A DNA stretch of 41,878 bases, taken from assembly GCA_043813215.1 (NCBI GenBank), contig JBDRLH010000018.1:1-41878 (forward strand), in the 5' to 3' direction. This DNA comes from Parcubacteria group bacterium (GTDB taxonomy: Bacteria > Patescibacteriota > Minisyncoccia > Minisyncoccales > JAQTPW01). Shown in pieces: positions 8,664 to 35,105 of this stretch; the stretch's first letter is position 1; each line of letters starts with the position of its first letter. The translations under genes were made by a program, and so were the position numbers. A model generated the notes under the pieces. The model saw nothing but the letters and a program-made list of their open reading frames with translations, searched no databases and was not told where the DNA came from.

Positions 8664-8670
8664 AAATTAA

Positions 8671-9138: not shown

Positions 9139-9160
9139 TTTCAAGTTTGCCCTTACTTTC

Positions 9161-10441: not shown

Positions 10442-10454
10442 AAAACTTATAATT

Positions 10455-11414: not shown

Positions 11415-12204
11415 CTCCGAATTTTTTAAATTGGAGATTATGATAACCGATTTCTGCAATTTAGATTGCCGACTATGTTCTCAGGGAATTCCCTTAATGA
11501 AAAATAAAAAAATTATATCTTTGGATGATTTAAAGAGAATGAGCAAGCTTGTGGAGCCGTTTGAATTCCACACCGTCAAGATTTGCGGGGGCGAGCCGAC
11601 ATCTCATCCTCAATTCGAAAAGATTTGCGACAATCTCAAGAGACTATTTCCTGCCGATTACTATTATTTGGCAACAAACGGTTTTTGGTTAGAGAAATTT
11701 ATCAATCAGATAAAAGTATTTAATATTATTGAATTGAGTCACTATCCTGGGAAAAATGATGAGATATTCGAGAAGTTAGCAAAACTGAAGATCCCCAATT
11801 TGGCGGCCATAAGAAAAAAAGAATATCAAGAGATAATGGATGTTTATCAAGAAAATAATTTAAACAAAACCGATATTTATAAAAGATGTCCCTATAAAGA
11901 AATACAAATTGTTCAAGACAGGATATATACTTGCTGTAATATATTTGGCCAGGCCATGCGCCAGAACATTGATCTTGATAAAATTAGCGTCCTTTTTGAT
12001 GAAAATTGGCGGCAAAACCTATCCAAAATTGACATAGAGCCTTATTGCCAGCGCTGTTTTATAGATGTGCCCGGGCCTGCCAGAGTTGCTCTATATGAGA
12101 TCGAAACAGGAATCGGGCGCTGGCTGAAAAAGAATTTTAAACCACTAAGTAAACTCATCCGCTGGTTAAAAATTCAAAAGCGGCAAATTAAAAGCAATAA
12201 TTAA
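11401..12204 (+). CDS. Small radical SAM enzyme with a C-terminal Cys-rich (twitch-like) region
   Basis: CNLDCRLC (CX3CX2C, nt 11455-11478), then GGEP, and C-terminal ...RIYTCCN... and CQRCF. These parallel the DGEVRMCC / CARCE motifs of the two larger paralogues. Start taken at ATG 11401, which overlaps the fcl-like stop; the track start 11380 is also possible. Confidence 0.65.
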
Positions 12205-12221
12205 AATCATAAGAAATTAAT

Positions 12222-13535
12222 ATGGCAGACATTAAAGTTAAAATCCAAAAAGAAATAAATAATCTGGTCAAAAAATATTTTTCTTTACCCGGGGAAAATT
12301 TTATTTCAAAAAAAATAAAAATTCCTTTGAATATCCCTACTTTTGGCTGGCAGGAAGTCAATGAAGCCATAGACTCTTTGCTTTCAACCTACGTTACCAT
12401 GAATGAAAAGGTTTATAGGTTTGAAGATATGTTCGCAAAATATCTAGGAGCAAAGCATGCCGTAATGGTGAATTCAGGATCTAGTGCAAACCTCATAGCT
12501 TTGTCTGTTTTAAGCAACCCGACTGTTAAAAACCGGATAAAGCCGGGTGATGAAATAATAACTCCGGCCGTAACCTGGTCAACTACCGTTTTTCCGATTA
12601 TTAACGTCGGGGCAAAGCCCGTTTTAGTAGATGTAAATTTAAATGATTTTAGTATAAATCCCGAATTAATTGAAAAGGCAATTACTAAAAAAACAAAAGC
12701 CATAATGCCTGTTCACCTTCTGGGAAATCCAGCCGACATGACAACTATTATGAAAATTGCCAAAAAACACGATTTATTCGTCATAGAAGACGCTTGCGAA
12801 GCCCATGGAGCACAACATTATGGAAAAAAGGTTGGAACTTTTGGTGATATGAGCACTTTTTCGTTTTTCTTTTCCCATCATATCAGCACAATAGAAGGAG
12901 GCATGGTGGTGACTAATAATGATGAATATGCTGAATTGGCAAAAATGCTTAGGGCACACGGCTGGATTAGGGAATTAAAAGATAAAGGAAAAATCGCCAA
13001 AAAATATAAAAAAATACACAAAAACTATCTGTTCGTAAACATTGGCTACAATCTCAGGCCAACCGCCCTGCAGGGAGCTTTTGGGATTCATCAGATCGGA
13101 AAGCTGGAAAATATTATAAAAATTAGGAGAAAAAATGCTGATTTTTGGTCCGATAAACTTTCAGAATATTCAGATTATCTGATGTCGCCCCAAAAAAAAG
13201 AAAAAAAAGGCGAAAGAAGGGTTTGGTTTGGTTACCCAATTATTATTAAAGAAAGAGCGGGATTTAATCGAAAAGAGCTAACCGATTTTTTAGAAAGCAA
13301 AGGTATCGAAACTCGGCCGATTATGGCTGGTAACTTGGCTGAGCAACCAGCCATGAAACTATTTAATTATCGGATAGCTAGCAGACTGGATAATTCCGAA
13401 ATCATTATGAAGAAAGCTTTCTTTTTTGGCAATCACCAGGGCGTCAGGAAAATAGAAAAGGAATATTTGGTGAGATGTTTTGTTCAGTTTTTGAAGCAGA
13501 AAAGTAAATTACGAAATAGATATGAGAATAAATAG
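12222..13535 (+). CDS. PLP/PMP-dependent NDP-4-keto-6-deoxyhexose 3-dehydratase (ColD / E1 RfbH-DdhC type) of the DegT/DnrJ/EryC1 family
   Basis: NSGSSANLIAL, VIEDACEAHG and FSFFFSHHISTIEGGMVV. Aligned with PseC in this same window (LSFHPVKTITTGEGGMVL), the Schiff-base Lys is replaced by His (H219/H220, nt 12876-12881). That substitution is the signature of the 3-dehydratase subgroup. Length 437 aa with only two Cys. Confidence 0.65.
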   Translation: MADIKVKIQKEINNLVKKYFSLPGENFISKKIKIPLNIPTFGWQEVNEAIDSLLSTYVTMNEKVYRFEDMFAKYLGAKHAVMVNSGSSANLIALSVLSNPTVKNRIKPGDEIITPAVTWSTTVFPIINVGAKPVLVDVNLNDFSINPELIEKAITKKTKAIMPVHLLGNPADMTTIMKIAKKHDLFVIEDACEAHGAQHYGKKVGTFGDMSTFSFFFSHHISTIEGGMVVTNNDEYAELAKMLRAHGWIRELKDKGKIAKKYKKIHKNYLFVNIGYNLRPTALQGAFGIHQIGKLENIIKIRRKNADFWSDKLSEYSDYLMSPQKKEKKGERRVWFGYPIIIKERAGFNRKELTDFLESKGIETRPIMAGNLAEQPAMKLFNYRIASRLDNSEIIMKKAFFFGNHQGVRKIEKEYLVRCFVQFLKQKSKLRNRYENK

Positions 13536-15012: not shown

Positions 15013-15967
15013 GGAAACAATTTTGGTTACAGGAGGTGCGGGCTTTATAGGATCTCATCTTTCAAAAAAGCTGATGGATTTGGGATATCAAATTGTCATA
15101 GTCGATAATTTCAATTCGTATTACGATCCTTCACTCAAAGAAAGAAGGATTTCAGAATTATTAAAAGGCTACAACTTCAAACTCTACAGAGAGGACATAA
15201 AGAATGCAAGAGCTTTAAGAAAAATTTTTTTGGAAAATAAAATAGACAAAATTTGTCATTTAGCCGCCCAGGCCGGCGTGAGATATTCGCTTATTGATCC
15301 TTTTATTTACGAAGAGTCAAACGTAAGAGGAACTTTAAATCTATTGGAACTGGCTAGAGAATTTAGAATAAAAGGATTTATTTTCGCTTCCAGCTCTTCT
15401 GTTTACGGCGCTAGCAAAAAAATACCTTTTAAAGAGAGCGATCCGATAGACAAACCTATTTCTGTTTATGCGGCAACAAAAAAAGCGGGAGAAGCCCTTG
15501 TTTTTAGTTATCATCATTTGTACAAAATTTCTGCGACAGTTCTTCGTTTTTTCAGCGTTTACGGCCCTTTTTGGCGGCCAGATTTGGCTTTGTGCAAATT
15601 TGCAACCCTGATTCATAACGATAAACCAATCGAGGTTTACAACTTCGGAAAAATGCAGAGAGACTTCACTTATATAGACGACATAGTAAACGGGATAGTG
15701 GTCGCCGTCAAAAAAAATTATCCTTGGGGAATATTCAATTTAGGAAGAGGCAAAGCTGTCCAACTTACCAAATTCATAACTTTAATTGAAAAAGAGATGG
15801 GAAAAAAGGCGTCAAAAAAAATGTTGCCGATGCAGCCTGGAGACATCGGTAAGGTTTGGTCAGATATTTCCAGCGCGAAGAAAAAATTGAATTATCGTCC
15901 GAAAACCGGAATCGCCGGAGGCGTTAAAAAAACAATAGATTGGTATAAAGATTACCTCAAAATTTAA
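14999..15967 (+). CDS. NAD-dependent SDR epimerase, UDP-glucuronate 4-epimerase-like
   Basis: [32 protein letters not shown] (characteristic of the GlcA/GalA 4-epimerase subgroup), ASSSSVYG, YAATKKAGE (YxxxK), RFFSVYGP. Confidence 0.65.
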   Translation: MNQGKETILVTGGAGFIGSHLSKKLMDLGYQIVIVDNFNSYYDPSLKERRISELLKGYNFKLYREDIKNARALRKIFLENKIDKICHLAAQAGVRYSLIDPFIYEESNVRGTLNLLELAREFRIKGFIFASSSSVYGASKKIPFKESDPIDKPISVYAATKKAGEALVFSYHHLYKISATVLRFFSVYGPFWRPDLALCKFATLIHNDKPIEVYNFGKMQRDFTYIDDIVNGIVVAVKKNYPWGIFNLGRGKAVQLTKFITLIEKEMGKKASKKMLPMQPGDIGKVWSDISSAKKKLNYRPKTGIAGGVKKTIDWYKDYLKI

Positions 15968-15971
15968 AAAT

Positions 15972-16988
15972 ATGCCAAGAGATCAAAAAACAATCGTCAA
16001 TTCCGGGCATTATCAATTTTTAGGGACAGATAAATTTGATGACGGTGAAAAATCATTTGGTAAGGATTACCTTGCCTATCGGGAGAAGTGGAAAGAACAC
16101 CCTCAAAAAGGAATAGTGGGCGAGTTTCCTCTTCACCTTGATATCGAATCAACCAACAGCTGCAATTTAAGATGCCCAATGTGCGGCCGAAATTTTATGA
16201 AAGAAAAATTAGGCTTCATCGATTGGAATTTATTTGTAAAAATTGTTGACGAAGCGGCAAAATATCATCTTCCCTCAATAAAACTTAATTATCGCGGAGA
16301 ACCATTGCTGCATCCTAAGATTTCGGAAATGGTAAAATATGCCAAAAAGAAAGGGATTTTAGAGGTGCAATTTAACACCAACGGGCTTTTATTGAACGAA
16401 AAAAAAGCTAAAGAACTTATAGAGGCAGGTATAGATAGAATTATTTTTTCCTTTGATGCCGCCGATAAAAAAATCTATGAAAAAATCAGAAGAGGTTCTA
16501 ATTACAATATAGTTATAAAAAATATAAAGAAATTAGCCGAGATTAGGAATAAAAAAGGATTAAAAAGGCCCTTAATAAGAGTCCAGATGGTAAAAATGAG
16601 AATTAACAAAAAAGAGGTCGAATCTTTTATAAATATGTGGCTTCCGGTCGCGAATAGAGTTTCTGTAAGTACTGAAAGAAATCTTTTAGGAAGAAAAAAG
16701 AAATTAAAACACTTTTCCTGCCCTCAAATCTGGCAGAGATTGATGGTTTGTTGGGATGGCGAGGTCAGAATGTGTTGCGGAGATTGGTACGGAGAAATTA
16801 TTTTAGGAAACGCCAAGAAGAATAGCCTTTATAAAATCTGGCATGGTAAAAAATTAAATGAAATCAGAAAGCTTCATTTAGAAGGCAGATTTAATAAGAT
16901 ATCGCTTTGCGCTCGTTGCGAAGTCAATACGCCGAGATTTGATTCAGAGCTCCAGAAATTAGTGGAGAAAATTAATTCTTCAAAATAA
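15972..16988 (+). CDS. Radical SAM enzyme with SPASM/twitch-type auxiliary-cluster domain, paralogue A
   Basis: CNLRCPMC (CX3CX2C, nt 16161-16184), YRGEPLLHP, C-terminal C-x12-G-x4-C-C (CPQIWQRLMVCWDGEVRMCC) and CARCE. Roughly 70-75 percent amino-acid identity by eye to 22964-23992. Confidence 0.75.
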   Translation: MPRDQKTIVNSGHYQFLGTDKFDDGEKSFGKDYLAYREKWKEHPQKGIVGEFPLHLDIESTNSCNLRCPMCGRNFMKEKLGFIDWNLFVKIVDEAAKYHLPSIKLNYRGEPLLHPKISEMVKYAKKKGILEVQFNTNGLLLNEKKAKELIEAGIDRIIFSFDAADKKIYEKIRRGSNYNIVIKNIKKLAEIRNKKGLKRPLIRVQMVKMRINKKEVESFINMWLPVANRVSVSTERNLLGRKKKLKHFSCPQIWQRLMVCWDGEVRMCCGDWYGEIILGNAKKNSLYKIWHGKKLNEIRKLHLEGRFNKISLCARCEVNTPRFDSELQKLVEKINSSK

Positions 16989-16990
16989 TC

Positions 16991-17788
16991 ATGGTAGAAA
17001 TAAATTCAAAAAATAAAGTCGTAATTCTTATCGCCGTCAGAATGAAGTCCGCTCGCTTGCCGAAGAAAGCCGTGGTTAAAATTGAAAGTAAATCGGCAAT
17101 AGAACATTTATTGGACAGGTTAAAATTAGCTAAAATTCCCAAGGCGATTGTGATTTGCACAACTAAAAACAGAGAAGACGATATTTTGGTTAAAATCGCC
17201 AAGAAAAATGGAGTTAAATGTTTCAGAGGCAGCAAAGAAGATGTTTTAGCCAGGTTTATCGGAGCGGCCGATGAAGAAAAAGCCGAAATAGTCGTTAGGG
17301 TGACGGGTGATAATATTTTAGTAGATCCTGTTTATCTGGATAAAATGATTAAATACCACATTAAAAACAAAGCAGATTATACCAGAACCGAAGGATTGCC
17401 TTCGGGAGTAAAATGCGAAGTGATGTCGGTCGCGGCTCTTAAAAAGACACGTAAACTTGCAGAAAGGCCTGAAAATAGTGAATATATGACGTGGTACTTC
17501 ACTAAAAATCCCGAATTTTTCAAGATTGCGACAATGCCGGTTCCTGAAAAATATTCCCGGCTGCGTTACCGGCTGACGATAGACGAGCCGAACGATTATA
17601 AGCTCCTGAAAATAATTTTTAAGAAGCTTTACAAAAAAGGGGAAAAACCATTTTTATGGCCTGAAATTGTGGAATTTTTAGACAAAAATCCCAAGCTCTT
17701 GGAAATCAACGCCAAAGTCGCCCACAAAGATTTTGCTAGAATGAAAAAAGAAATCAATATTAAATTAAAGAAAAAGCAATATGCCTAA
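16991..17788 (+). CDS. SpsF/NeuA/KdsB-family cytidylyltransferase (CTP_transf_3), copy 1
   Basis: VILIAVRMKSARLPKKA N-terminal nucleotide-binding motif, ICTTKNREDD, VRVTGDNILVDP. Length 265 aa. Confidence 0.65.
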   Translation: MVEINSKNKVVILIAVRMKSARLPKKAVVKIESKSAIEHLLDRLKLAKIPKAIVICTTKNREDDILVKIAKKNGVKCFRGSKEDVLARFIGAADEEKAEIVVRVTGDNILVDPVYLDKMIKYHIKNKADYTRTEGLPSGVKCEVMSVAALKKTRKLAERPENSEYMTWYFTKNPEFFKIATMPVPEKYSRLRYRLTIDEPNDYKLLKIIFKKLYKKGEKPFLWPEIVEFLDKNPKLLEINAKVAHKDFARMKKEINIKLKKKQYA

Positions 17789-19160
17789 AATAAGCGTTTA
17801 TACGCCAACTTACAATTGTGCAAGATACTTAAAGACTGCCATCAATAGTATTCTTAAGCAGACCTATCAAGATTTTGAATTGATAATTATTGACGATGCC
17901 AGCAGTGATAATACTTGTGACATTCTCGATGATTATAAAAATAATCCGAAAATTAAAATATTCAGAAATGAAAAAAATATTGGTTTTGTGAGATCGGCGA
18001 TAAGAGCCATAGAGAAAGCCAATGGAGAATATATTATGAGATTAGACGCCGACGACTATCTCGATGAGAATGCCTTATTTGTTATGGCCAACATCTTGGA
18101 CAATCATCCGGAATTTGGAATGGTTTATCCCGATTACTTCGAAATCGACGAGAAGGGGAATATAATCGATTATTTCAGGAAAAACAAAATCGGAGAGGAA
18201 ATTAAATTAATGGATTTGCCGGCCAACGGTGCCTGCACATTAATGAGAAAATCCTGTTATAAATCTATCGGGGGATATCGTGACGATATCAGAATGCAGG
18301 ACAAATATGACATATGGATAAAATTCCTTAAAAAATTTGAGCCGTATAATGTAAATCTTCCATTGTTTTATTACAGAAGACACGGAGGTAATATTTCAAA
18401 TAATGCAAAAAAGATATTACAGACGAGAAGATATATAAAAGAAAAATTTATCGAAAAGAAATATAAAAAAACAAAGCCCAAAATTCTGGCAATAATACCC
18501 ACCAGGGCTAAATTTCCAATATACTCTGATTTTCCTATAAGAAAAATTGCCGGCAAACCTTTGATTTATTATCCAATAAGGGCGATAAAGGGGATTTCTT
18601 TGATTAAAAAAGCAATTTTTGTTACGGAAGATAAAGACTTAGCAAAAGAAGCAAAAAAGCATAATATCGAAACCATGATAAGGCCGGAAGAACTTGCCAC
18701 TTCCAGAATAGGCATTGAACCCACTATAAAATATGTTCTTAATCAAGTGAAGAAAAAAAATAAATTTATTCCGGATATCGTGGTAATTCTTTTTATAACC
18801 TCCCCCCTCATTACTTCTGAGCACGTAAAAGCGGCGATCGATACCCTGATGATTTATGATGCTGACAGTATAATTTCGGTTCAAGAAGATAAAAGATTTC
18901 ATCATAAACACGGAAGGTATGGCTTGGAGCCGATTTTTGAAAAAAGATTGCTACGCCAAGAAAAAGATTTGCTTTTTGAAGAAATTGGTTCCTTGGTAGT
19001 GACCAAAAGAAAATTTATAACAGATAAAAATTTGTTTGGGAAAAAAATTGGGCACATCGCTTTGGCCGATGAGGAGGCGATAGACATTGATAATAAATTT
19101 AAATTTTGGTTGGCCGAGCAGATTATTAAAAACAGGAATAAGATTAATAAATTAACTTAA
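17781..19160 (+). CDS. Fusion protein: N-terminal GT2 glycosyltransferase + C-terminal NeuA/KdsB-like cytidylyltransferase domain
   Basis: aa 1-230: ISVYTPTYNCARYLKTAINSILKQTYQDFELIIIDDASSDNT and RLDADD (DxD). From aa ~235: ILAIIPTRAKFPIYSDFPIRKIAGKPLIYY, VTEDK, ILFITSPLITSEHV. The domain boundary is near nt 18474. Confidence 0.65.
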   Translation: MPKISVYTPTYNCARYLKTAINSILKQTYQDFELIIIDDASSDNTCDILDDYKNNPKIKIFRNEKNIGFVRSAIRAIEKANGEYIMRLDADDYLDENALFVMANILDNHPEFGMVYPDYFEIDEKGNIIDYFRKNKIGEEIKLMDLPANGACTLMRKSCYKSIGGYRDDIRMQDKYDIWIKFLKKFEPYNVNLPLFYYRRHGGNISNNAKKILQTRRYIKEKFIEKKYKKTKPKILAIIPTRAKFPIYSDFPIRKIAGKPLIYYPIRAIKGISLIKKAIFVTEDKDLAKEAKKHNIETMIRPEELATSRIGIEPTIKYVLNQVKKKNKFIPDIVVILFITSPLITSEHVKAAIDTLMIYDADSIISVQEDKRFHHKHGRYGLEPIFEKRLLRQEKDLLFEEIGSLVVTKRKFITDKNLFGKKIGHIALADEEAIDIDNKFKFWLAEQIIKNRNKINKLT

Positions 19161-19184: not shown

Positions 19185-20009
19185 ATGCAAGAAAACACAA
19201 ATCAATTCGCGTTGCGCAGGCAGTGGGGGCCAAATTTTAATATCCCTAATGTTTTAAAAACTAATTTTGAACAACCATCGGAAATGGTGGTAATTGGCGG
19301 TCCTTGCGCTATTGAGTCTCCTGAGCAAATTGATAAAATTGTTCCGGAAATTTCAAAAGAGGTGACTTATTTCAGGGGAGGAGTTTTCAGGGCCGGCACA
19401 TATCCGCCAAAAGAAATTGGCTGGAACTGGGATTTATTAAAGTATTACAATCAAAAAGCAAAAGAATTCGGGAAAACAAATGCTGTCGATGTTTTGGATT
19501 TAAGGGATATCGATAAAATTGAACCTTATCTTGGAGCTTTTCAGGTAGGGATGAGGGCGGCTCAAAATTATGTTTTACTGGATGAATTATCAAAGCAGGA
19601 AAAACCGGTATTTTTAAAAAGAGGCGCTTGGGAAAAGTTAGACGAATGGCTTGGTTCTTTAGAATATTTAGTCAAAAGAGGAAAGAAAAATATTTATCTT
19701 ATTGAAAGGGGCATTGTCGGTTTTGACAACCATACGAGATATACTTTGGCCATATCTTCCATTCCCTCAATTAAAGCTATTTGCAACGTGCCGATTATTA
19801 TTGATGCCTGTCACGGAACAGGCAGAAGGGATATAGTGCCCGCTATGACTTATGCCGGAATCGGGGCCGGCGCCGCCGGAATTTTATTGGAAACTCATTA
19901 TGATCCAGAAAATGCCATGGGAGCTGATGCAGCCCAAACGATTAATTTCCAAACTTTTCACAAGACAGTGGCAAGGGCAAAAGAAATTTATGATATTGTC
20001 AGAAAATAA
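19185..20009 (+). CDS. DAHP synthase type I-beta / KDO8P synthase-fold PEP-utilising aldolase (divergent)
   Basis: IGGPCAIES, FQVGMRAAQNY, FLKRG, IERGIVGF..TRYTL, IIDACHGTGRRDIV, LLETHYDPENAMGADAAQ. The metal-ligand pattern Cys41/His210/Glu236/Asp248 is retained. The canonical KPRT(S)P motif reads RAGTYP (aa 69-74). Confidence 0.65.
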   Translation: MQENTNQFALRRQWGPNFNIPNVLKTNFEQPSEMVVIGGPCAIESPEQIDKIVPEISKEVTYFRGGVFRAGTYPPKEIGWNWDLLKYYNQKAKEFGKTNAVDVLDLRDIDKIEPYLGAFQVGMRAAQNYVLLDELSKQEKPVFLKRGAWEKLDEWLGSLEYLVKRGKKNIYLIERGIVGFDNHTRYTLAISSIPSIKAICNVPIIIDACHGTGRRDIVPAMTYAGIGAGAAGILLETHYDPENAMGADAAQTINFQTFHKTVARAKEIYDIVRK

Positions 20010-20010
20010 T

Positions 20011-21096
20011 ATGAAGCGAGACCTAAAAATTTTAGCAGATTTAGAAGAGAGGCTTGAAAAGTTTTTGGCTTTGGCAAAAAACGAAATTCATTCAAAGCCC
20101 TGGCTGGTCGTCGTGCTGATGCACGAGTATTACAGGAATCTTTATCCCCAAGATCCTTATCTTCCGTTTGACAAAAAAATATCAAATACAAGTAGAATAA
20201 AGTCTGTCTTAGAAAAGAACATTGAAATTTTAAAAAAGACAGATTATATTAAATCCTATTTTCCTAAAATTACCAGTTTGGATAATTTTGTGTCGGAAAA
20301 GCTTGATAATTATAAAAGTAAAACAAAAGGAAAAACTCAAAAAGTTTATGATATGCTCTGGAAAAAATTCAGCACAGCAAATTATTTGGAAGAAGCAAAA
20401 AGAATAATCATTGATAGGTTCAAAAACAGTAAATTTAATTTCCCGAAACTTAAAGGCAAAACGATCTTAGATCTCGGATGCGGGAGTGGGAGATATACAA
20501 TTGCTCTTACTTTGTTGACCGGAGCTAAAAAAGTTTACGGGATTGATTTAGACAGAGAGTCGATTAAAAGATGTAAAAAGATCGTAAATAAGGCAGGAAT
20601 TTCAAATATAGAATTCAAAGTTGCGGATGTTTTAGATATTCCCTTTGAAGATAATTTTTTCGATTTTATTTTTTGCAATGGCGTCTTGCATCATACTCTT
20701 GATATGAAAAAAGGGATGAGGGAATTTTATCGAGTATTGAAACCAAAATCCCGCGCCTATTTATATTTATATGGCGATGGAGGGATTTTTTGGCAGACAA
20801 GAAAAATGGCGCCTAAAATAATGAAAAAAATTCCTCAAGAATATACAATGGCAGTTTTAGACATAATAGGATTACCTAAATCACGTTTTTTATTCACCGA
20901 TAATTGGTATGTTCCCTTAGAACGACATACCACTAGAAAATATCTGGAAAGTTATCTTAAAAAAATAGGATTTTCAGCAATAGAAAAAATTATAAGCGGT
21001 CGACCTACCGACCTTGATAGTGTTGTCGCGCTTAATCATCAGGATTCGAAAATCATATGGGGCGACGGGGAACTTCGGTATTTTGTTGAAAAATAA
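20011..21096 (+). CDS. Class I SAM-dependent methyltransferase with a ~190-aa N-terminal extension
   Basis: The track ORF starts at 19852 inside the previous gene; ATG 20011 lies 1 nt after the upstream stop. ILDLGCGSGRYTIAL (motif I), YGIDLD, FDFIFCNGVLHH, LKPKSRAYLYLYG. Confidence 0.7.
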   Translation: MKRDLKILADLEERLEKFLALAKNEIHSKPWLVVVLMHEYYRNLYPQDPYLPFDKKISNTSRIKSVLEKNIEILKKTDYIKSYFPKITSLDNFVSEKLDNYKSKTKGKTQKVYDMLWKKFSTANYLEEAKRIIIDRFKNSKFNFPKLKGKTILDLGCGSGRYTIALTLLTGAKKVYGIDLDRESIKRCKKIVNKAGISNIEFKVADVLDIPFEDNFFDFIFCNGVLHHTLDMKKGMREFYRVLKPKSRAYLYLYGDGGIFWQTRKMAPKIMKKIPQEYTMAVLDIIGLPKSRFLFTDNWYVPLERHTTRKYLESYLKKIGFSAIEKIISGRPTDLDSVVALNHQDSKIIWGDGELRYFVEK

Positions 21097-21105: not shown

Positions 21106-22959
21106 ATGTGTGGAATTTTTGGAACAATAAATAGTAAAAAAACCAAAGAAATCGGCCGGATCGCCTTTGAACTTTTGCGTCACAGAGGTCCTGACGACAG
21201 GGGCATAATTACTTTTCCCCAAGGCATGATGCTGAATACAAGGCTGTCTATTATTGATTTGAGTCCGACTGGCCACCAGCCGATGGTAAGTCGCGATGAG
21301 AATATATATCTAGTCTTTAACGGAGAAATATACAATTACCTTGAACTGAAAGATGAATTAAAAAGAGATTATATTTTTAGGACTAATACCGATACGGAGG
21401 TTATAATAGCTGCTTATCAAAAATGGGGTGAAAATTGTCTGAATAAATTTCGGGGGATGTTTGCTTTCGGGCTTTGGGATAAAAAACAAAAAAAGCTTTT
21501 TTGCGCAACAGATCGTTTTAGCATTAAACAGATATATTATTATTGCGATAAAAACACTTTTATTTTTTCTTCGGAAATAAAACCTATTTTGGCGAGTGGC
21601 GTAAAAGCCAAGCCAAACGACCAGGCTATTTATGATTTTTTATCGTTTGGATTCCAAGACCATGATGAAAATACTTTTTTCAAAAATATCTACCAACTGA
21701 GGCCCGCTCACTATCTTTTATTTAAAGACGGAAAGTTAAAAATGAAAAGATATTGGGATAAAAAAGAAGAAGAAATAGGAATTCTTAAGGAAAACAAAAA
21801 AGAAATTTTAAATAAATTAGATAAAAAATTAAGAGAAACAATCGCTTATCATTTAAGGAGCGACGTGGAGGTGGGATTAAGTTTGAGTTCAGGCTTGGAT
21901 TCAAATATGGTGAGAGCGATAGCCACTGATTTACTCGGTTCCTCCAAAAGAATTAAATGCTTTAATTTTAGTTTTGTAAATACTATTTATGACGAAAAAG
22001 AAAGATTGGTTAAACTAAATTTAAAAGATAAAAGATGCGATTTTTATTCGACTCCCATAACGCCTGACGATTTCTTTAAAAATTATTCGGAATTGATTTA
22101 TATAATAGAGGAACCGATCAGCGGATTGGGGATTTATGCTTATTGGCTGAATTGCCAGCACGTCCACGAAAGAGGAATAAAAGTATTGCTTGACGGACAA
22201 GGAGGTGATGAGGCCTTCGGGGGATATAAATATTATTATTATCACAGGTTTCTGAATCTCTGGAAGAGAAAACGCCTTAAAGAGCTACAAGAAGAAATAA
22301 AAGCTTTCAATTTAATAAACCAAGACAATATTAAATTTCCAGACGCTGATTTTGATAAATTTCTTCAAAAGAATACAATCTTCGGAGCGATGAAAGCTCC
22401 CGATGGAACATCCTTGGCAGCTGACTATTTAGCTTCTGGTTTTGCTAAAAAATTCAAGAAAAGAAACATAAAACCAGAAAAAAAATTCGAAAGCTCCCTG
22501 AGGAATGCAATCTATAACGATCTTATTTATTTCAAAATTCCAAAATTGCTACGTTTTCAAGATAAAGCCTCAATGTCATGGTCGGTGGAAACAAGAGTCC
22601 CTTTTTTAGACCATGAATTAATTGATCTTGCGTTTTCTTTGCCGGAAGAATGTCTTTTAAGAAATGGAGTAGGCAAATATGCATTCAAAAAGATTGGCGA
22701 AAGATATATCGAGCAATCTTTGATGAAAATTCCGAAACTCTATGTAGCAACTCCGCAAAGGGAATGGATAAGGCATGATCTTAAAAAAGAAATAATCAAA
22801 ATGATTGATGATTCGGTTTTGCAAAAAGAAGGGTATGTTGATGCTAAAAAACTAAAAGCAGAATACAACAATTATCTTCAGCAAAAAGACTTGGGAAATT
22901 CATTTTTTATTTGGAAATTTTTTTCACTAGAGCTTTGGTATAGAAATTTTATTAGATAA
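21106..22959 (+). CDS. Asparagine synthase (glutamine-hydrolysing) family amidotransferase, AsnB-like
   Basis: MCGIFG N-terminus (Cys2 Ntn nucleophile), RGPDD, FNGEIYNY, SLSSGLDS PP-loop. Length 617 aa. Confidence 0.8.
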   Translation: MCGIFGTINSKKTKEIGRIAFELLRHRGPDDRGIITFPQGMMLNTRLSIIDLSPTGHQPMVSRDENIYLVFNGEIYNYLELKDELKRDYIFRTNTDTEVIIAAYQKWGENCLNKFRGMFAFGLWDKKQKKLFCATDRFSIKQIYYYCDKNTFIFSSEIKPILASGVKAKPNDQAIYDFLSFGFQDHDENTFFKNIYQLRPAHYLLFKDGKLKMKRYWDKKEEEIGILKENKKEILNKLDKKLRETIAYHLRSDVEVGLSLSSGLDSNMVRAIATDLLGSSKRIKCFNFSFVNTIYDEKERLVKLNLKDKRCDFYSTPITPDDFFKNYSELIYIIEEPISGLGIYAYWLNCQHVHERGIKVLLDGQGGDEAFGGYKYYYYHRFLNLWKRKRLKELQEEIKAFNLINQDNIKFPDADFDKFLQKNTIFGAMKAPDGTSLAADYLASGFAKKFKKRNIKPEKKFESSLRNAIYNDLIYFKIPKLLRFQDKASMSWSVETRVPFLDHELIDLAFSLPEECLLRNGVGKYAFKKIGERYIEQSLMKIPKLYVATPQREWIRHDLKKEIIKMIDDSVLQKEGYVDAKKLKAEYNNYLQQKDLGNSFFIWKFFSLELWYRNFIR

Positions 22960-22963: not shown

Positions 22964-23992
22964 ATGAAAAAAATAAAAAAACAAAACAATACTATTATTA
23001 ATTCTGGTTATTTCGAGTTTTTAGGAACAGATAAAATTAAGGACGGAGAGAAGTCTTTCGGTCCAGAATATTTTGCTTATCGTAAAAAATGGCGAGAATT
23101 TCCCGAAAAGAAAATTGTCGCTGATTTCCCGCTTCATTTAGATATTGAATCAACCAATGCTTGCAATTTAAAATGTCCAATGTGCGGCCGGAATTGGATG
23201 AAAGAAAAAATCGGCTACATAAACTGGAATCTTTTTACTAAAATTATTGACGAAGCCGCAAAATATCATCTTCCCTCGGTTAAGTTTAACTACCGGGGAG
23301 AGCCCTTGCTTCATCCCGATATTGCCAAGATGATCAAATACGCCAAAGATAAAGGAATCTTAGAGGTTCAATTTAATACCAATGGATTTTTACTTAGCGA
23401 GAAGAAGGCAGAGGAATTAATTGATGCCGGCTTGGATAGAATAATTTTTTCTTTTGATGGGGCAACCAAAAAAACTTACGAGAAAATTAGAAAGGGTTCT
23501 AATTATGAACGAGTAATAAACAACATTAAAAATTTAGTTAGTCTTCGTAATGAAAAAGGATTAAAACGTCCCTTGACCAGAGTTCAAATGGTAAAAATGT
23601 CAATCAATGAAAAAGAAGTGGAAGATTTTATTCGGATGTGGCTTCCTATTTGTAATCGAGTTGCCATAAATCTTGAGGTTAATCTTTTAGGAAGCGAAGA
23701 GACTAAAACTAAAATACATTTTCCTTGCACTCAAATCTGGCAGAGATTAATGATTTGTTGGGACGGAGAAGTGAGGGTGTGTTGCAAAGATTGGTATGGA
23801 AAGCACCCCATAGGTAATGTTAAAAAAACAAGTATTTATAATATCTGGCACAGTGAAAAATTAAACAAAGTAAGGAAGTTTCATTCTGAAGGAAATTTTA
23901 ATCGGATTCCGGCTTGTGCTCACTGTGAAATGAATATTCCGAGATTGGATCTTAAATTGCAGAAACTCCTTAAAAAATACAACACTAAATAG
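22964..23992 (+). CDS. Radical SAM enzyme with SPASM/twitch-type auxiliary-cluster domain, paralogue B
   Basis: CNLKCPMC (nt 23162-23185), YRGEPLLHP, CTQIWQRLMICWDGEVRVCC and CAHCE. Colinear with 15972-16988 along its whole length. Confidence 0.75.
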   Translation: MKKIKKQNNTIINSGYFEFLGTDKIKDGEKSFGPEYFAYRKKWREFPEKKIVADFPLHLDIESTNACNLKCPMCGRNWMKEKIGYINWNLFTKIIDEAAKYHLPSVKFNYRGEPLLHPDIAKMIKYAKDKGILEVQFNTNGFLLSEKKAEELIDAGLDRIIFSFDGATKKTYEKIRKGSNYERVINNIKNLVSLRNEKGLKRPLTRVQMVKMSINEKEVEDFIRMWLPICNRVAINLEVNLLGSEETKTKIHFPCTQIWQRLMICWDGEVRVCCKDWYGKHPIGNVKKTSIYNIWHSEKLNKVRKFHSEGNFNRIPACAHCEMNIPRLDLKLQKLLKKYNTK

Positions 23993-25690: not shown

Positions 25691-26497
25691 ATGAAAGAAA
25701 TCAACTGCCCGAATTGTCAGAGCCAAAAATCTAAAATTGTCCTCGATGTTTCAAAAGAAAAAGATATATATTTGGATTGCTTGAAGATAGATTACAAAAA
25801 GATAAAAAAGCTTTATCTTGAATGTAAGGAATGCGGCTTAATATACAGAAATTCGGCTTTAAATGAGAAAGAGAAAAAATTATTATATAAACACTATAGA
25901 GATGAAAAATTTAAAAAAGAAAATAAATCAGATTATTTTTATAGAATTATTTCTTTACCCAAAAGACAGAGCGAAAACTATCAAAAATGTTTATTTTTGA
26001 AGAAATTTTTAAGAAAGAAAGGCAGTCTTCTGGATATCGGTTGCGGAGCTGGAGCATTCTTATATACTTTCAAGAATTATTATTTCGGCTGGGAAGTTTT
26101 TGGGATTGAACCGACCGAGGGGTTTGCCGATATTGCCAAAGAAAAGGGTATCAGAATTATTTATGGATATTTAAAGAAAAATACATTCAATAGGAAGTTT
26201 GATTTGATTACTTTAAATCATGTATTAGAACACATAGAAGACTTCAAGGAGATGCTGTTGTTGATCAAAAGATATTTTAAAAAAGACGGTTTATTGTATA
26301 TTGAAGTTCCTTCAGCTAGAGAAATAGGACGCGCTCCCAAATCTCACGATCAATTTATGTCTCCCCATCTTATTATTTTTTCTAAAAAGATTTTAGAAAA
26401 TATTCTGGCAAAGTTAGGTTATTCAGTAATAATCTCAGAGGATTTAAGATCAATAAGAAATTACAATACTGTCCGGATAATCGCTAAAATTTCATAA
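25691..26497 (+). CDS. Zn-ribbon + class I SAM-dependent methyltransferase
   Basis: CPNCQS...CKECG zinc ribbon, LLDIGCGAGAFL motif I, FDLITLNHVLEHIEDF. Paralogous to the C-terminal half of 38928-40487. Confidence 0.7.
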   Translation: MKEINCPNCQSQKSKIVLDVSKEKDIYLDCLKIDYKKIKKLYLECKECGLIYRNSALNEKEKKLLYKHYRDEKFKKENKSDYFYRIISLPKRQSENYQKCLFLKKFLRKKGSLLDIGCGAGAFLYTFKNYYFGWEVFGIEPTEGFADIAKEKGIRIIYGYLKKNTFNRKFDLITLNHVLEHIEDFKEMLLLIKRYFKKDGLLYIEVPSAREIGRAPKSHDQFMSPHLIIFSKKILENILAKLGYSVIISEDLRSIRNYNTVRIIAKIS

Positions 26498-27716: not shown

Positions 27717-28697
27717 ATGAATTTTGACAATAAAACAATTTTAATTACCGGGGGAGCGGGATCTTTCGGCCAAAAATTTACTGAGATTACTTTAAAAGAG
27801 CATAATCCGAGAACGGTGCGCATTTATGATAATAGGGAATTGGCAGAAGTAGAGATGGAAAGGAAATTTAATGATAAACGCCTTAGATTTTTAGTCGGCG
27901 ATGTCAGGGATAAAAATAGACTTAGCAGGGCAATGAACGGAGTTGATATTGTAGTTCATGCCGCCGCTTTGAAGCATGTTCCCATATGCGAATACAATCC
28001 CATGGAAGCAGTCAGAACTAATATTGAGGGCGCAATAAACGTTGTTGATGCTGCCATTGATAATTCAATCGAAAGAGTAATAGCAATTAGTACGGACAAA
28101 GCAGTTTATCCCATTAATTTATACGGAGCAACTAAAATGGTGGCTGAAAAAATATTTACCCATGGGAATTTTTATAGTGGCGAAAGGAAAACTATGTTTT
28201 CCTGCGCCCGTTATGGAAATGTTATTGGAAGCTCGGGAAGCGTTGTGCCATTATTTTTTGAGCAGAGGAAAAACGGAGAAATCACAATCACCGATGAAAG
28301 AATGACCAGATTCTGGATTACTTTGGGGCAAGGCGCTCATTTTGTTATCAAATGCATCGAAATGATGAAGGGGGGTGAAATATTTGTTCCCAGAATTCCC
28401 AGTATGAAGATTTTAGATTTAGCCGAAATAGTAGCCCCTGGAGCCACCAGAAAGATTTTGGGCATACGCCCCGGAGAAAAATTAGATGAAGTTTTGATTA
28501 CCGAAGAAGAGGCGAGGCACACAAAAGAGTTTGAAGATTATTTTATCATTGAACCCGAGGCTCCTTTCCAAAGGAGAATTAGCATTTCAGAGGGCGAATC
28601 ACTTCCCGATGGATTCAAATACACCAGTAGTAATAATGACAAATGGATTACTACAGAAGAAATAGAAGGTATTTTAAAAAATTTAGAAACAAAATAA
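27717..28697 (+). CDS. pseB: UDP-N-acetylglucosamine 4,6-dehydratase (inverting), PseB/FlaA1 type
   Basis: KTILITGGAGSFGQKF, VVHAAALKHVPICEYNP, ISTDKAV.P.NLYGATKMVAEK. 326-aa short-form Polysacc_synt_2 protein, directly followed by pseC. Confidence 0.8.
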   Translation: MNFDNKTILITGGAGSFGQKFTEITLKEHNPRTVRIYDNRELAEVEMERKFNDKRLRFLVGDVRDKNRLSRAMNGVDIVVHAAALKHVPICEYNPMEAVRTNIEGAINVVDAAIDNSIERVIAISTDKAVYPINLYGATKMVAEKIFTHGNFYSGERKTMFSCARYGNVIGSSGSVVPLFFEQRKNGEITITDERMTRFWITLGQGAHFVIKCIEMMKGGEIFVPRIPSMKILDLAEIVAPGATRKILGIRPGEKLDEVLITEEEARHTKEFEDYFIIEPEAPFQRRISISEGESLPDGFKYTSSNNDKWITTEEIEGILKNLETK

Positions 28698-28699
28698 AA

Positions 28700-29848: not shown

Positions 29849-29891
29849 AGATTTAATTATCTGGACAACAGACACGCAAACTGATAAAATT

Positions 29892-34046: not shown

Positions 34047-35105
34047 ATGAACAAAATTAGATTTAAAATTGGCAACAGAACGGTAGGGGTCGATTATCCG
34101 GTTTTGGTTATAGCTGAAGTATCGGCCAATCACAACGGAAGCTTAAAAAGGGCAAAGGAAATAGTAAAAACCGCCTGTGAGCTCGGAGCAGGAGCCATTA
34201 AAATTCAGACCTATACCGCCGATACCATGACTTTGCCTTCGGATAAAGAACCGTTTCAAATCAAGGTTAATCCTGCCTGGAAAGGAAGAACATTATACGA
34301 TCTTTATGAATCAGCCTACACGCCATGGGAATGGGACGCCGAGTTAAAGCAAGTAGCGGAGAGTTATGGCATCCCCCTTCTTTCTACTGCTTATGATGAT
34401 GCGTCGGTAGATTTTCTGGAAAAATTGGGAGTTCCCGCTTATAAAATTGCTTCTTTTGAAAATACCGATTTAGAGCTTCTAAAGAAAGTGGCTCAGACCA
34501 AAAAACCGGTGATTATCTCTCGAGGAATGTCTACTTTAGCCGAATTGACTGAAGCCATTTCGACTTTGCGAAAAAATGGCGCTCCAGATATCGCAGTCTT
34601 GCATTGCGTCAGTTCTTATCCGGCCAAACCCGAAGAGATGAACCTTGCCACTATTTCTGATATCGGGGAGAGGTTTAAGGTGGTGCCCGGCCTTTCGGAT
34701 CACACTATCACTACCTCCACCGCCGTGGCGGCGGTAGCCCTGGGAGCCTGCATTATTGAGAAACACTTTACCTTAAGAAGGGCTGACGGTGGATTTGATG
34801 CCGCTTTCTCCTTAGAACCAAAAGAATTTGAAGAACTGATAAAATCTGTCAAAGATATAAAGAAAGCTTTCGGAAAAGTTTCCTATGAAGTGGGGAGCGG
34901 CGAGTCGGAGAACATTGTTTTTAAAAGGTCGCTCTGGGTGATAAAACCGATTAAAAAAGGAGAGAAATTTACAAGAAACAATGTCGGTCGTTTTCGTCCC
35001 GGCAACGGCTTGCCCGTTAAATCCCTGTCGCAGGTTTTAAGTAAAGTTGCCAAGAGGAATATAACAGCTAATACTCCAATGAGCTGGGATTTAGTTGAAG
35101 AATAA
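34047..35105 (+). CDS. pseI: Pseudaminic acid synthase (NeuB family, with C-terminal SAF domain)
   Basis: VIAEVSANHNGSLKRAKEIV, AIKIQTYTADTMTL.SDKE.F.IK, LYDLYESAYTPWEW, YKIASFE, GLSDH, IEKHFTL. The IKIQTYT and LY.LYE..TP.EW blocks match C. jejuni PseI better than NeuB, as recalled from memory. Confidence 0.8.
   Translation: MNKIRFKIGNRTVGVDYPVLVIAEVSANHNGSLKRAKEIVKTACELGAGAIKIQTYTADTMTLPSDKEPFQIKVNPAWKGRTLYDLYESAYTPWEWDAELKQVAESYGIPLLSTAYDDASVDFLEKLGVPAYKIASFENTDLELLKKVAQTKKPVIISRGMSTLAELTEAISTLRKNGAPDIAVLHCVSSYPAKPEEMNLATISDIGERFKVVPGLSDHTITTSTAVAAVALGACIIEKHFTLRRADGGFDAAFSLEPKEFEELIKSVKDIKKAFGKVSYEVGSGESENIVFKRSLWVIKPIKKGEKFTRNNVGRFRPGNGLPVKSLSQVLSKVAKRNITANTPMSWDLVEE

Follow-up and report, generated by a model that had tools for sequence, protein, structure and literature searches.

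A putative ulosonic-acid synthase of the DAHP-synthase fold, lacking the phosphate-anchor arginine and encoded in a conserved, largely phage-borne cassette

A contig of a Parcubacteria group bacterium (JBDRLH010000018.1) carries, among genes for glycan synthesis, a gene for a protein resembling DAHP synthase (DAHPS), an enzyme otherwise at home in the shikimate pathway. What does such an enzyme make there? The first-pass annotation of the contig (41,878 nucleotides, the whole of which is referred to here as the window) had listed the signature motifs of the type I-beta DAHPS/KDO8PS fold, had noted that the KPRT block is lost, and had proposed that PEP is condensed with a different, possibly non-phosphorylated sugar, giving a Kdo- or heptulosonate-like acid that is then CMP-activated on a route independent of pseI. 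We found that the gene belongs to a distinct clade of the DAHP-synthase family, named xAGTY for the loop that stands in place of KPRTS. The evidence supports its being the synthase that provides an ulosonic acid within a cassette that is conserved, mobile, and carried largely by phages, with the enzymatic function inferred. A new building block for glycans, and not aromatic amino acids, is the most likely outcome of its activity; its substrate and product remain unidentified.

The synthase belongs to the DAHP_synth_1 superfamily (Pfam PF00793, 136.3 bits against a gathering score of 25.5, E 1.2e-39, amino acids 33–263). Each signature motif quoted in the first-pass annotation is present at the position given for it. 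The DAHPS of P. furiosus (1ZCO) aligned with the synthase in HMMER at E 1.3e-48, without gaps at the active site. An AF2 model of the synthase (pLDDT 95.1) was matched by Foldseek to solved DAHPS I-beta structures (TM 0.82–0.85, rmsd 1.7–1.8) more closely than to KDO8PS (TM about 0.79, rmsd 2.5). KDO8PS entries in the PDB matched at merely E 3e-9, no KANRS loop was present, identity to E. coli KdsA was 21%, and neither KDO8PS model reached its cut-off (TIGR01362, 61 versus 314; NF003543, 67.6 versus 242). The claim of an I-beta DAHPS/KDO8PS-type fold therefore held, on the DAHPS I-beta rather than the KDO8PS side. The synthase shares the TIM-barrel and 33–36% sequence identity with the type I-beta enzymes of P. 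furiosus (1ZCO), T. maritima (1RZM), and A. pernix (1VS1), and like the Pyrococcus enzyme it consists of an unadorned catalytic core of ~270 amino acids. Condensation of PEP with an aldehyde is inferred from these relationships, enzyme activity being untested. The gene ends in a TAA codon at 20007–20009, and the ATG of the next gene follows at 20011.

Table 1. Features of the window (nucleotide positions) and sequence motifs of the synthase (amino acid positions).
Feature	Position	Strand	Remarks
Radical SAM/SPASM enzyme, cassette ortholog	15972..16988	+	Auxiliary-cluster domain resembles BtrN; predicted sugar-tailoring, chemistry unassigned
KdsB/NeuA-family (CTP_transf_3) cytidylyltransferase	16991..17788	+	Pfam E 1.8e-23; PDB 6OEW 'Cytidylyltransferase' E 5e-34
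GT2 fused to a second, PseF-like cytidylyltransferase domain	17781..19160	+	GT2 (cassette ortholog) aa 1-230; PseF-like domain aa ~235-450
Synthase	19185..20009	+	ATG start, 274 aa; xAGTY-clade DAHPS fold, predicted PEP-aldose condensing / ulosonic-acid synthase
Synthase motif GPCAIES	aa 39-45
Synthase motif GGVFRAGTYP	aa 65-74
Synthase motif QVGMRAAQN	aa 120-128
Synthase motif KRG	aa 145-147
Synthase motif ERG	aa 174-176
Synthase motif DACHGTGRRD	aa 207-216
Synthase motif ETHYDPE	aa 236-242
Class I SAM methyltransferase	20011..21096	+	Subfamily differs from phage-cassette methyltransferase
AsnB-type glutamine amidotransferase, accessory	21106..22959	+	Not in phage cassettes
Second radical SAM/SPASM enzyme	22964..23992	+	Paralog of 15972-16988, about 69-70% identical
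Methyltransf_23 methyltransferase	25691..26497	+	Matches core of phage Zn-ribbon-MTase-TPR protein: 24% identity, E 6.5e-10
PseI	34047..35105		439.8 bits versus cut-off 340.25

The catalytic residues of the synthase are retained. C41, H210, E236, and D248 align with residues of 1ZCO that we take to be the metal ligands of the P. furiosus enzyme, and the spacing between the His and the Glu is 26 residues in both proteins; the first-pass annotation had compared this spacing with Thermotoga DAHPS. The PEP-binding residues are R64, R124, K145, and R175. None of these metal or PEP residues varied among 120 homologs, and the same Cys/His/Glu/Asp site and Arg/Lys set are common to the clade and to canonical type I-beta DAHPS.

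What has been lost across the clade is the arginine that anchors the phosphate. In the K-P-R-T/S-S loop of DAHPS, the Arg and Thr bind the phosphate of E4P, and the Lys is catalytic. RAGTY of the synthase (R69-A70-G71-T72-Y73) falls exactly on KPRTS of 1ZCO in the HMMER alignment, with no indel in the loop. Across an alignment of 162 clade members and 76 canonical type I-beta DAHPS, position 71 is Gly in 100% of the clade and Arg in 100% of canonical enzymes, and there are similar divisions at positions 70 (Ala 98%, Pro 100%), 69 (Arg 96%, Lys 100%), and 73 (Tyr 91%, Ser 99%); T72 is kept in both. The reported loss of KPRT thus held, with Gly replacing Arg in 162/162 relatives. The changes concentrate in this loop, which contains four of the nine group-specific positions (K69R, P70A, R71G, and S73Y); F129Y and A244S are among the rest. 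The family also has an N-terminal motif of its own, [KR][RN]-x-[WF]-G-P, which holds a conserved basic pair. For the synthase, the argument about the pocket rests on alignment alone, as the coordinates of the AF2 model were not inspected.

Two simpler accounts of the altered loop were rejected. A KPRT motif that is present but shifted was ruled out by the ungapped alignment of the loop, and a one-off degenerate pseudo-enzyme was ruled out by the family-wide conservation. A point that goes beyond the first-pass annotation is that Arg69 is not strictly invariant: a few clade members have Ser, Phe, or Lys at this position, those with Ser or Phe being in phage. Residue 69 corresponds to the Lys that is catalytic in KPRT, and Ser or Phe there is unexpected for an essential residue, a point against our interpretation.

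The synthase fell short of the cut-off of every curated DAHPS model, namely NF006421 (230.6 versus 335), TIGR01361 for type I-beta DAHPS (218.8 versus 267.75), NF009239 (189.1 versus 279), and NF041229 for the BagF/FevY secondary-metabolite DAHPS paralogs (153.1 versus 700). A family HMM gave 320–453 bits for clade members and at most 287 for canonical enzymes, and the relatives were monophyletic (NJ bootstrap 89/100), with the synthase inside their clade. Other loop variants exist as well, namely KPCTF, KPCTY, and KPATY, together with SYGTY and RYGTY in more distant proteins (P0131 and P0135). Membership in xAGTY was defined by an x-A-G-T/H-Y/F loop, a family HMM score >319 bits, placement within the clade, and neighboring cytidylyltransferase and GT2 genes. 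The synthase meets this definition, scoring 422.8 bits and lying inside the bootstrap-89 clade, with the cytidylyltransferase 2.2 kb and the GT2 1.4 kb upstream.

Might the gene nevertheless encode an ordinary DAHPS for aromatic amino acids, or be an auxiliary metabolic gene with which phages enhance the synthesis of these amino acids? In favor of this, homologs are named '3-deoxy-7-phosphoheptulonate synthase' or 'AroA' in their sources, the top curated models and top PDB matches are DAHPS, and K01626 is listed in virome surveys as an amino-acid auxiliary metabolic gene. Against it stand the scores below every curated DAHPS cut-off, the loss of the E4P-phosphate Arg from all members, and the separation of the xAGTY clade in the tree. 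In addition, no shikimate or other aromatic-pathway gene was found in the window, as first claimed, or in any of the related loci that were read, and a cytidylyltransferase/GT2/radical SAM cassette accompanies the gene in 33/35 loci. We regard this alternative as all but excluded. It is also very unlikely that the synthase is the sole DAHPS of a shikimate-competent genome, because most members are located in phages, though the rest of this genome was not inventoried. If our assignment is right, viral 'DAHP synthase' genes are being misread by automatic annotation as auxiliary metabolic genes of aromatic amino-acid synthesis.

The clade is large and mostly viral, a further point absent from the first-pass annotation, and it is poorly represented in reference collections. 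A scan of GTDB species representatives yielded mostly ordinary KPRTSP DAHPS and only two true xAGTY members, both on phage-like contigs binned into MAGs. The cultured phages of INPHARED had host-type DAHPS only (≤41% identity), PHROGs gave only a weak match to a generic DAHPS family, and in BFVD only giant-virus KDO8PS was matched. No member from a cultured organism was found among the relatives, and hence the cassette has no link to a known glycan. Nothing on the clade or the cassette was found in the full-text literature searched, although absence there is no proof of absence.

The neighbors named in the first-pass annotation (cytidylyltransferases, methyltransferase, amidotransferase, and radical SAM enzymes) are all real. 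The cytidylyltransferase at 16991..17788 is the ortholog of the one found in every cassette (BLAST to L116, L117, L119, L001, and the phage cytidylyltransferase-GT2 fusion), and this cassette enzyme scores best against KdsB models. We predict that it CMP-activates the product of the synthase and that the GT2 encoded immediately downstream transfers it. The radical SAM enzyme matched only generic SPASM or twitch entries in NCBIfam and the PDB (Tes, BtrN, MoaA, and BlsE). The Methyltransf_23 protein is the only homolog in the window of the core of the phage Zn-ribbon-MTase-TPR protein. The AsnB-type amidotransferase could possibly amidate a glycan carboxylate.

This arrangement recurs widely. 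Radical SAM, cytidylyltransferase, and GT2 genes occur within 7 kb of the synthase gene in 33/35 loci, the contigs of the other two being cut at the gene, and the context is one of glycan or phage genes in 35/35. The partner genes are orthologous among CPR, jumbo-phage-like, and phage loci. Most xAGTY members occur in phage genomes of ~40–45 kb, directly after tail-fibre genes, where the cassette also has a Zn-ribbon methyltransferase bearing TPR repeats; the cassette is likewise found in CPR and other bacterial glycan loci. One phage cassette, at L002:7345-12198, comprises five genes, and P0090 is a phage ortholog of the synthase. Different lineages fuse the partners in different combinations: cytidylyltransferase-GT2 in phages, the same two domains in the opposite order in the window, radical SAM-cytidylyltransferase in L116, cytidylyltransferase-2-hydroxyacid dehydrogenase (2-Hacid_dh), and synthase-methyltransferase in P0124. 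These fusions, several of them independent, and the gene linkage are established. CMP activation of the product, as first proposed, is supported by this context and is still inferred.

Accessory genes vary among loci. The CPR-like locus L122 lacks a radical SAM gene and has Wzm/Wzt_C neighbors, and some bacterial loci include genes for a PfkB kinase or for HldE/GmhA-like proteins. Since AsnB, 2-hydroxyacid dehydrogenase, heptose genes, and Wzt_C are each missing from some loci, what the accessory genes suggest about the identity of the sugar amounts to ideas only.

The window also encodes a complete and separate Pse module, with PseB, PseC, and PseI above curated cut-offs. Given this module, and given that a NeuB-like gene is absent from 26/28 phage cassettes and a KdsA gene is found in 0/28, the proposal of a second ulosonic-acid route, independent of pseI, is supported. 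In the Nitrospirae loci L008 and L009 and in two phage loci, a NeuB-like gene adjoins the DAHPS-like gene, and the cytidylyltransferase may possibly serve the NeuB-like enzyme there.

A related question is whether the synthase replaces NeuB, condensing PEP with a 2-acetamido (6-deoxy)hexose to form a nine-carbon nonulosonic acid instead of a Kdo- or DAH-like acid of seven or eight carbons. This is suggested by the NCBI name of one homolog ('N-acetylneuraminate synthase family protein'), by weak precomputed NeuB Pfam matches on many homologs, by P0128, a related KPCTYP variant whose C-terminal region weakly resembles a SAF domain (18.9 bits versus a cut-off of 21), and by the PseF-like character of the window's second cytidylyltransferase domain. 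However, the synthase itself had no match to the NeuB family (PF03102) or to the SAF domain in Pfam at E ≤ 0.01, the cassette cytidylyltransferase is closest to KdsB models, and the phage cassettes encode no NeuC/PseG-type hydrolase or other enzyme making or releasing N-acetylhexosamines. Where NeuB-like genes co-occur, they are extra rather than replaced. We consider replacement of NeuB unlikely.

Our main reading, to which we assign a probability of roughly 0.6, is that the xAGTY synthase makes an ulosonic acid from a non-phosphorylated aldose and supplies it to a CMP-activation and transfer cassette. The enzyme would be metal-dependent and built on the type I-beta barrel, with its PEP and metal chemistry unaltered. 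With Gly replacing the Arg to which the terminal phosphate of erythrose-4-P or arabinose-5-P is anchored, and with the hydroxyls of Y73, Y129, and S244 predicted to line the aldose side, the substrate would most likely be an aldose without a terminal phosphate. The products would be phosphate and a free 3-deoxy-2-ulosonic acid, as for bacterial NeuB and PseI but on a DAHPS scaffold. The adjacent KdsB/NeuA-family cytidylyltransferase would then CMP-activate the acid, the co-conserved GT2 would transfer it, and the radical SAM/SPASM enzyme and methyltransferases would tailor it; in phages, the glycan decorated by the mobile cassette would be that of the host or of the virion. The non-phosphorylated substrate, the Kdo- or heptulosonate-like nature of the product, its CMP activation, its transfer by the GT2, and the biological role are all inferences; the first two, put forward in the first-pass annotation, have not been shown.

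Another alternative is that the aldose may still be phosphorylated (A5P-, E4P-, or hexose-6-P-like), with the phosphate site rebuilt from R69, T72/Y73, or the N-terminal [KR][RN] and with a host phosphatase acting on the product ahead of its CMP activation, as happens on the routes to Kdo and to human sialic acid. R69 keeps the loop positively charged, T72 is shared by both groups, and the basic N-terminal motif is particular to the family; R69 or the N-terminal basic pair could conceivably still bind a phosphate or carboxylate. Moreover, aldose phosphates are plentiful in cells and free aldoses few, and the kinase and heptose-type genes of some bacterial loci would be consistent with a phosphorylated substrate. 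Against this, an Arg present in 100% of canonical enzymes is Gly in 100% of the clade, and some members have Ser or Phe in place of R69. Among the phage loci with Pfam calls on their genes, none showed a KdsC-like phosphatase. The N-terminal segment of I-beta DAHPS lies at the end of the barrel opposite the active site, which by inference would put the basic pair far from the aldose. On balance, a phosphorylated substrate appears unlikely.

A more remote alternative is that the electrophile is not a sugar but a small or carboxylated aldehyde, possibly derived from the BtrN-like radical SAM enzyme or a 2-hydroxyacid dehydrogenase, and that the product is an ulosaric-type diacid (e.g., Dha-like) or a non-glycosyl substituent. 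Neighbors that act on carboxylates or 2-hydroxyacids (AsnB in the window and the 2-Hacid_dh fusion), the weak similarity of the radical SAM enzyme to the decarboxylase BlsE and to BtrN, and the absence of aldose-supplying genes from the phages could be read in this way. However, AsnB and 2-Hacid_dh are accessory and lie outside the universal core, CMP activation of the KdsB/NeuA type needs a ring-forming ulosonic acid, and there is no direct evidence for such an electrophile. We consider it very unlikely.

An ulosonic acid made from a free aldose, as in our main reading, invites comparison with three known systems. From type I-beta DAHPS the synthase differs in having RAGTY rather than KPRTS, F129Y, A244S, and its own N-terminal motif, and in a context of CMP-sugar and glycosyltransferase genes rather than the shikimate pathway. 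With the KdsA/KdsB pathway to Kdo it shares the logic of PEP and an aldose giving a 3-deoxy-ulosonic acid, followed by CMP activation by a CTP_transf_3 enzyme and transfer by a glycosyltransferase; unlike that pathway, the cassette has no KdsD isomerase or KdsC phosphatase, and the synthase has no KANRS motif. Kdo transferases belong to GT30, GT99, or GT107, whereas the predicted transferase of the cassette is a GT2, and use of CMP-sugars is not known among GT2 enzymes, which counts against GT2 as the transferase. The predicted chemistry is that of NeuB, PseI, and LegI, metal-dependent enzymes that condense PEP with an aldose lacking a phosphate and whose free acid goes straight to CMP activation. 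They too occur in glycan loci, but they belong to a different branch of the superfamily.

A bolder reading, which taken as a whole could as easily prove wrong as right, is that xAGTY synthase, KdsB-like cytidylyltransferase, GT2, radical SAM/SPASM enzyme, and Zn-ribbon methyltransferase with TPR repeats form a mobile, mainly phage-borne cassette that builds, tailors, and transfers an unknown, probably methylated, 3-deoxy-ulosonic acid. Beside KdsA and NeuB, the synthase would then represent a third type of enzyme making sugar acids for glycans, one that evolved independently, having arisen from a shikimate-pathway enzyme through loss of the phosphate anchor, and the cassette would let phages re-decorate either the envelope of the host or the virions themselves. 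The Wzm/Wzt_C neighbors in L122 suggest one possible variant, in which the acid caps and terminates the chains of glycans exported by an ABC transporter.

DAHPS, KDO8PS, and NeuB are a textbook case of the evolution of substrate specificity and are antibiotic targets. Should our interpretation be correct, xAGTY would be a natural DAHPS barrel without its phosphate anchor, showing how an enzyme was recruited from amino-acid metabolism into glycan synthesis, and would offer a ready scaffold for making unusual ulosonic acids. It would also imply that CPR bacteria and phage-infected cells contain a CMP-activated sugar acid not yet described, with two unusual features in its pathway: a GT2 that possibly takes a CMP donor, and radical SAM chemistry on a sugar acid. 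The position of the cassette beside tail fibres in dozens of ~40–45 kb environmental phages would point to remodelling of surface glycans.

The pairing of cytidylyltransferase and radical SAM domains has a counterpart in TIGR04321, the 'spiro-SPASM protein' of spirochetes, in which a cytidylyltransferase-like domain is fused to a radical SAM/SPASM domain and whose function is unknown; no paper on it was found in the full-text literature searched. Its N-terminal half resembles the cytidylyltransferase at 16991–17788 and its C-terminal half the radical SAM enzymes at 15972–16988 and 22964–23992. All of these matches are below the cut-off (56–86 versus 250), and in the window the domains are on separate proteins. 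In L116, a cytidylyltransferase and a radical SAM domain are likewise fused, in reversed order.

The synthase is encoded by an ORF that starts with ATG and was confirmed to be real. The window that holds it is a 41,878-bp contig from a 'Parcubacteria group bacterium' MAG, whose deposited record lists this protein as hypothetical. Its TAA stop codon (20007–20009) is followed at position 20011 by the start of the methyltransferase gene, and the two genes are therefore tightly coupled in one operon. A mechanical ORF list extends the methyltransferase to 414 amino acids (19852–21096), with a 158-nt overlap with the synthase, but the ATG at 20011, one base past the synthase stop, is most likely the start.

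Amino acids 33–263 of the synthase match Pfam DAHP_synth_1 (E 1.2e-39). The top match among solved structures, as searched by sequence, is P. furiosus DAHPS (1ZCO, E 1.3e-48), whereas KDO8P synthases match no better than E 3e-9. AlphaFold2, supplied with 120 homologs, produced a confident model (pLDDT 95.1, pTM 0.91) that resembles type I-beta DAHPS structures (TM 0.82–0.85, rmsd 1.7–1.8 Å) more closely than KDO8PS (TM ~0.79, rmsd ~2.5 Å). C41, H210, E236, and D248 align with the four metal ligands of Pyrococcus DAHPS, and the synthase and 1ZCO share a His-to-Glu spacing of 26. The first-pass annotation had reported the signature motifs of this fold and a rewritten KPRT motif; all quoted motifs were found in place, and the alignment with 1ZCO sets RGGVFRAGTYP of the synthase on RGGAFKPRTSP with zero gaps. 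The synthase keeps the DAHPS I-beta barrel together with its metal and PEP sites but lacks the loop Arg that is universally conserved in canonical enzymes. In established structures of DAHPS and KDO8PS, this Arg binds the aldose phosphate.

The altered loop is a family trait. Nearly all of the best 120 homologs (43–100% identity to the synthase, 247–293 amino acids) read RGGVFRAGTYP. G71 is invariant among them, R69 occurs in 119, A70 and T72 in 116 each, and position 73 is Tyr in 109 and Phe in 11; no variation occurs at the metal ligands or at PEP-binding residues R64, R124, K145, and R175. Comparison of 162 members of this xAGTY clade (relatives having x-A-G-T-Y in place of KPRTS) with 76 canonical I-beta enzymes revealed only nine positions fixed differently, four of which are the loop itself: K69R (96% of the clade; 100% of canonical enzymes), P70A (98%; 100%), R71G (100%; 100%), and S73Y (91%; 99%). 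In the same comparison, F129Y and A244S add hydroxyls beside conserved active-site motifs. Position 69 is the equivalent of the catalytic Lys, and an essential residue is not normally so variable; here it is also Ser (loci L094, L095, L103, and L106 and protein representative P0126), Phe (L090), or Lys (P0110 and P0124). Members also share F-x-x-[KR]-[RN]-x-[WF]-G-P, an N-terminal motif specific to the family.

The synthase has the fold of DAHPS, a surrounding layout similar to that of the Kdo pathway, and a working mode predicted to be shared with NeuB, yet it failed tests of membership in the functional families of DAHPS, KDO8PS, and NeuB. Every curated NCBIfam model scored it below its cut-off (DAHPS NF006421, 230.6 bits against 335; DAHPS TIGR01361, 218.8 against 267.75; KDO8PS TIGR01362, 61 against 314; BagF/FevY NF041229, 153.1 against 700). 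A family HMM gave 320–453 bits for members and at most 287 bits for canonical enzymes. Only about eight of 1.84 billion 50%-identity representatives exceeded 300 bits, and the clade is therefore compact. In a neighbor-joining tree of 100 catalytic domains (pairwise <70% identity, rooted on E. coli KdsA), 83 xAGTY sequences were monophyletic with bootstrap support of 89/100; no maximum-likelihood tree supplements this. Database names within the family range from 'hypothetical' to '3-deoxy-7-phosphoheptulonate synthase', 'AroA', and 'N-acetylneuraminate synthase family protein', and the literature searched contained no description of the clade or its cassette.

Loops lacking the Arg but keeping Lys-Pro (KPCTF, KPCTY, and KPATY) occur in other DAHPS I-beta-like proteins, whose grouping with the xAGTY clade is not robust (28/100). 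KPCTF is found in Nitrospirae MAGs (L008:1564–2406 and L009:5127–5963) within a similar cassette of TPR-methyltransferase, glycosyltransferase, radical SAM/SPASM, DAHPS-like, NeuB-SAF, GT2, two cytidylyltransferase, and methyltransferase genes. P0128 (KPCTYP) carries a SAF-like domain at its C-terminal end, although the match is weak (18.9 bits; cut-off 21), and KPATY occurs in a Planctomycetota MAG (L014:9833–10810) without glycan context.

The synthase lies within a long same-strand glycan locus of the window.

Features of the window, with profile scores where available
Feature	Coordinates	Remarks
Large protein, 1275 aa	107–3934	Sub-threshold BNR_assoc_N match only
Large protein, 577 aa	4073–5806	Peptidoglycan-binding domain
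NDP-sugar tailoring set	6348–13535, 36711–38931	
GDP-mannose 4,6-dehydratase-type enzyme	7602–8663	Tailoring set
NUDIX protein	8671–9138	Tailoring set
Two C-methyltransferases	9161–10441, 37651–38931	Tailoring set; Zn-binding domains
Small radical SAM	11380–12204	Tailoring set
DegT aminotransferase	12222–13535	Tailoring set
Radical SAM/SPASM enzyme	15972–16988	
CTP_transf_3 cytidylyltransferase	16991–17788	
GT2–cytidylyltransferase fusion	17781–19160	Second cytidylyltransferase domain, PseF-like
Synthase	19185–20009 (+)	274 aa
SAM methyltransferase	20011–21096	
AsnB-type amidotransferase	21106–22959	
Second radical SAM/SPASM paralog	22964–23992	
PseB	within 27717–35105	466.6 bits (cut-off 407.75)
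PseC	within 27717–35105	472.1 bits (cut-off 423.5)
PseI	within 27717–35105	439.8 bits (cut-off 340.25)
PseH-like GNAT	within 27717–35105	
B12-binding radical SAM	29892–31421	Unusual extra of Pse module
Pse module cytidylyltransferase	31396–32166	
Formyltransferase	32218–32895	Unusual extra of Pse module
PIG-L-type deacetylase	32873–33577	Unusual extra of Pse module

BLAST identified the cytidylyltransferase at 16991–17788 and the GT2 portion of the neighboring fusion as orthologs of cassette genes in other loci. The cytidylyltransferase matches PDB 6OEW ('Cytidylyltransferase', E 5e-34). Together with the adjoining radical SAM/SPASM enzyme, it corresponds to the two halves of TIGR04321 ('spiro-SPASM'), a fusion of unknown function; L116:6793–8598 has both domains fused in reversed order. 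The auxiliary-cluster domain of the radical SAM enzyme matches BtrN (E 8e-12) and its remaining matches are generic; oxidation, epimerization, deoxygenation, and decarboxylation are all possible.

Context was compared in 35 loci encoding clade members. In 33 of these, radical SAM/SPASM, cytidylyltransferase, and GT2 genes occur within 7 kb of each other, and the other two contigs start at the synthase gene. Linkage of the synthase to a KdsB/NeuA-family cytidylyltransferase and GT2 is in this sense obligatory. The same partners recur as fusions: CT-GT2 in phages, GT2-CT in the window and close relatives, radical SAM/SPASM-CT in L116, and CT-2-hydroxyacid dehydrogenase in L119. P0124, a 769-amino acid metagenomic representative with the loop KAGTYP, fuses the synthase to a Zn-ribbon-Methyltransf_23-TPR protein, the one found after the synthase in phage cassettes. 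CPR-like locus L122 has no radical SAM within 10 kb, which leaves synthase, cytidylyltransferase, and GT2 as the irreducible core. There, the CT, GT2-CT, and synthase genes adjoin a phosphoglycosyl transferase (Bac_transf initiating transferase) and a Wzm/Wzt(Wzt_C) exporter (L122:5802–7899). β-Kdo is a chain-terminating cap in some O-antigens, and by analogy the sugar acid may serve as one here.

Viruses contribute most clade members. One arrangement recurs in 30 IMG/VR contigs, the majority of them 31–48 kb, and in several metagenome contigs: tail-fiber-like genes, radical SAM, CT-GT2, a 121-amino acid helical protein, synthase, and the Zn-ribbon-MTase-TPR protein, followed on the opposite strand by a DNA polymerase A module. 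Two 'genome' matches, from Nannocystis sp. (L006) and Endomicrobiia (L007) MAGs, have this same architecture and, with L005 (P0064, Gammaproteobacteria MAG), the gene order of ~40–45 kb phages; L005 and L006 have tail-fiber-like genes ahead of the cassette, and in L006 DNA polymerase A comes after it. The three sit in bins from widely different phyla, a pattern suggestive of prophages or of phage contigs binned in error. The gene was absent from the cultured phages of INPHARED.

Several further loci bear mention. L118, a 176-kb contig that resembles a jumbo phage, carries the cassette, a ThyX gene split by an intein/HNH element (15114–16787), and dCMP deaminase. A short NeuB-barrel-like ORF (227–230 amino acids) without SAF lies directly upstream of the synthase in two phage loci, L113 (9322–10005), where SDHT and EKH are kept, and L099 (9300–9992), where they have degenerated to SDKT and EKC. 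P0012, a close homolog of CPR type (79% identity), lies on a 2.7-kb contig of a Njordarchaeales MAG.

An aromatic-pathway DAHPS would be the conventional reading, and at least one virome study placed viral K01626 among amino-acid auxiliary metabolic genes, although membership of those genes in this clade is not established. No shikimate genes occurred in any related locus read, a survey that did not cover the rest of the source MAG. KdsA was found in none of 28 phage cassettes, and a NeuB-like gene was absent from 26. We consider it very likely that the synthase belongs to glycan cassettes rather than being a DAHPS of the aromatic pathway.

As to substrate, the first-pass annotation had predicted a different, possibly nonphosphorylated or modified, aldose. 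We likewise infer that the synthase would condense PEP with an aldose lacking a terminal phosphate, yielding a free 3-deoxy-2-ulosonic acid. The same logic applies to NeuB: no phosphatase would be needed, and none was seen in the phage loci whose genes carried Pfam calls. The acid would then be CMP-activated and transferred, and the radical SAM enzyme and methyltransferases would tailor the sugar or glycan. To our knowledge, no GT2 enzyme uses a CMP-sugar donor. We favor this whole chain only modestly (probability ~0.6). The synthase would accordingly represent a new specificity class, its specificity being inferred, among α-carboxyketose synthases; the cassette around it is carried largely by phages and is undescribed.

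The window's Pse route is separate, with PseB, PseC, and PseI scoring above their cut-offs. The first-pass annotation was accurate in describing a second ulosonic-acid route, independent of this one, at the locus. No canonical PseG was seen in the window's Pse module. With its unusual extra enzymes, the module may produce a C-methylated or N-formylated pseudaminic acid. The NDP-sugar tailoring set could likewise supply a branched amino-deoxy sugar to the same glycan, and the two large proteins whose genes precede the glycan locus are possible surface proteins, to which the glycan might be attached.
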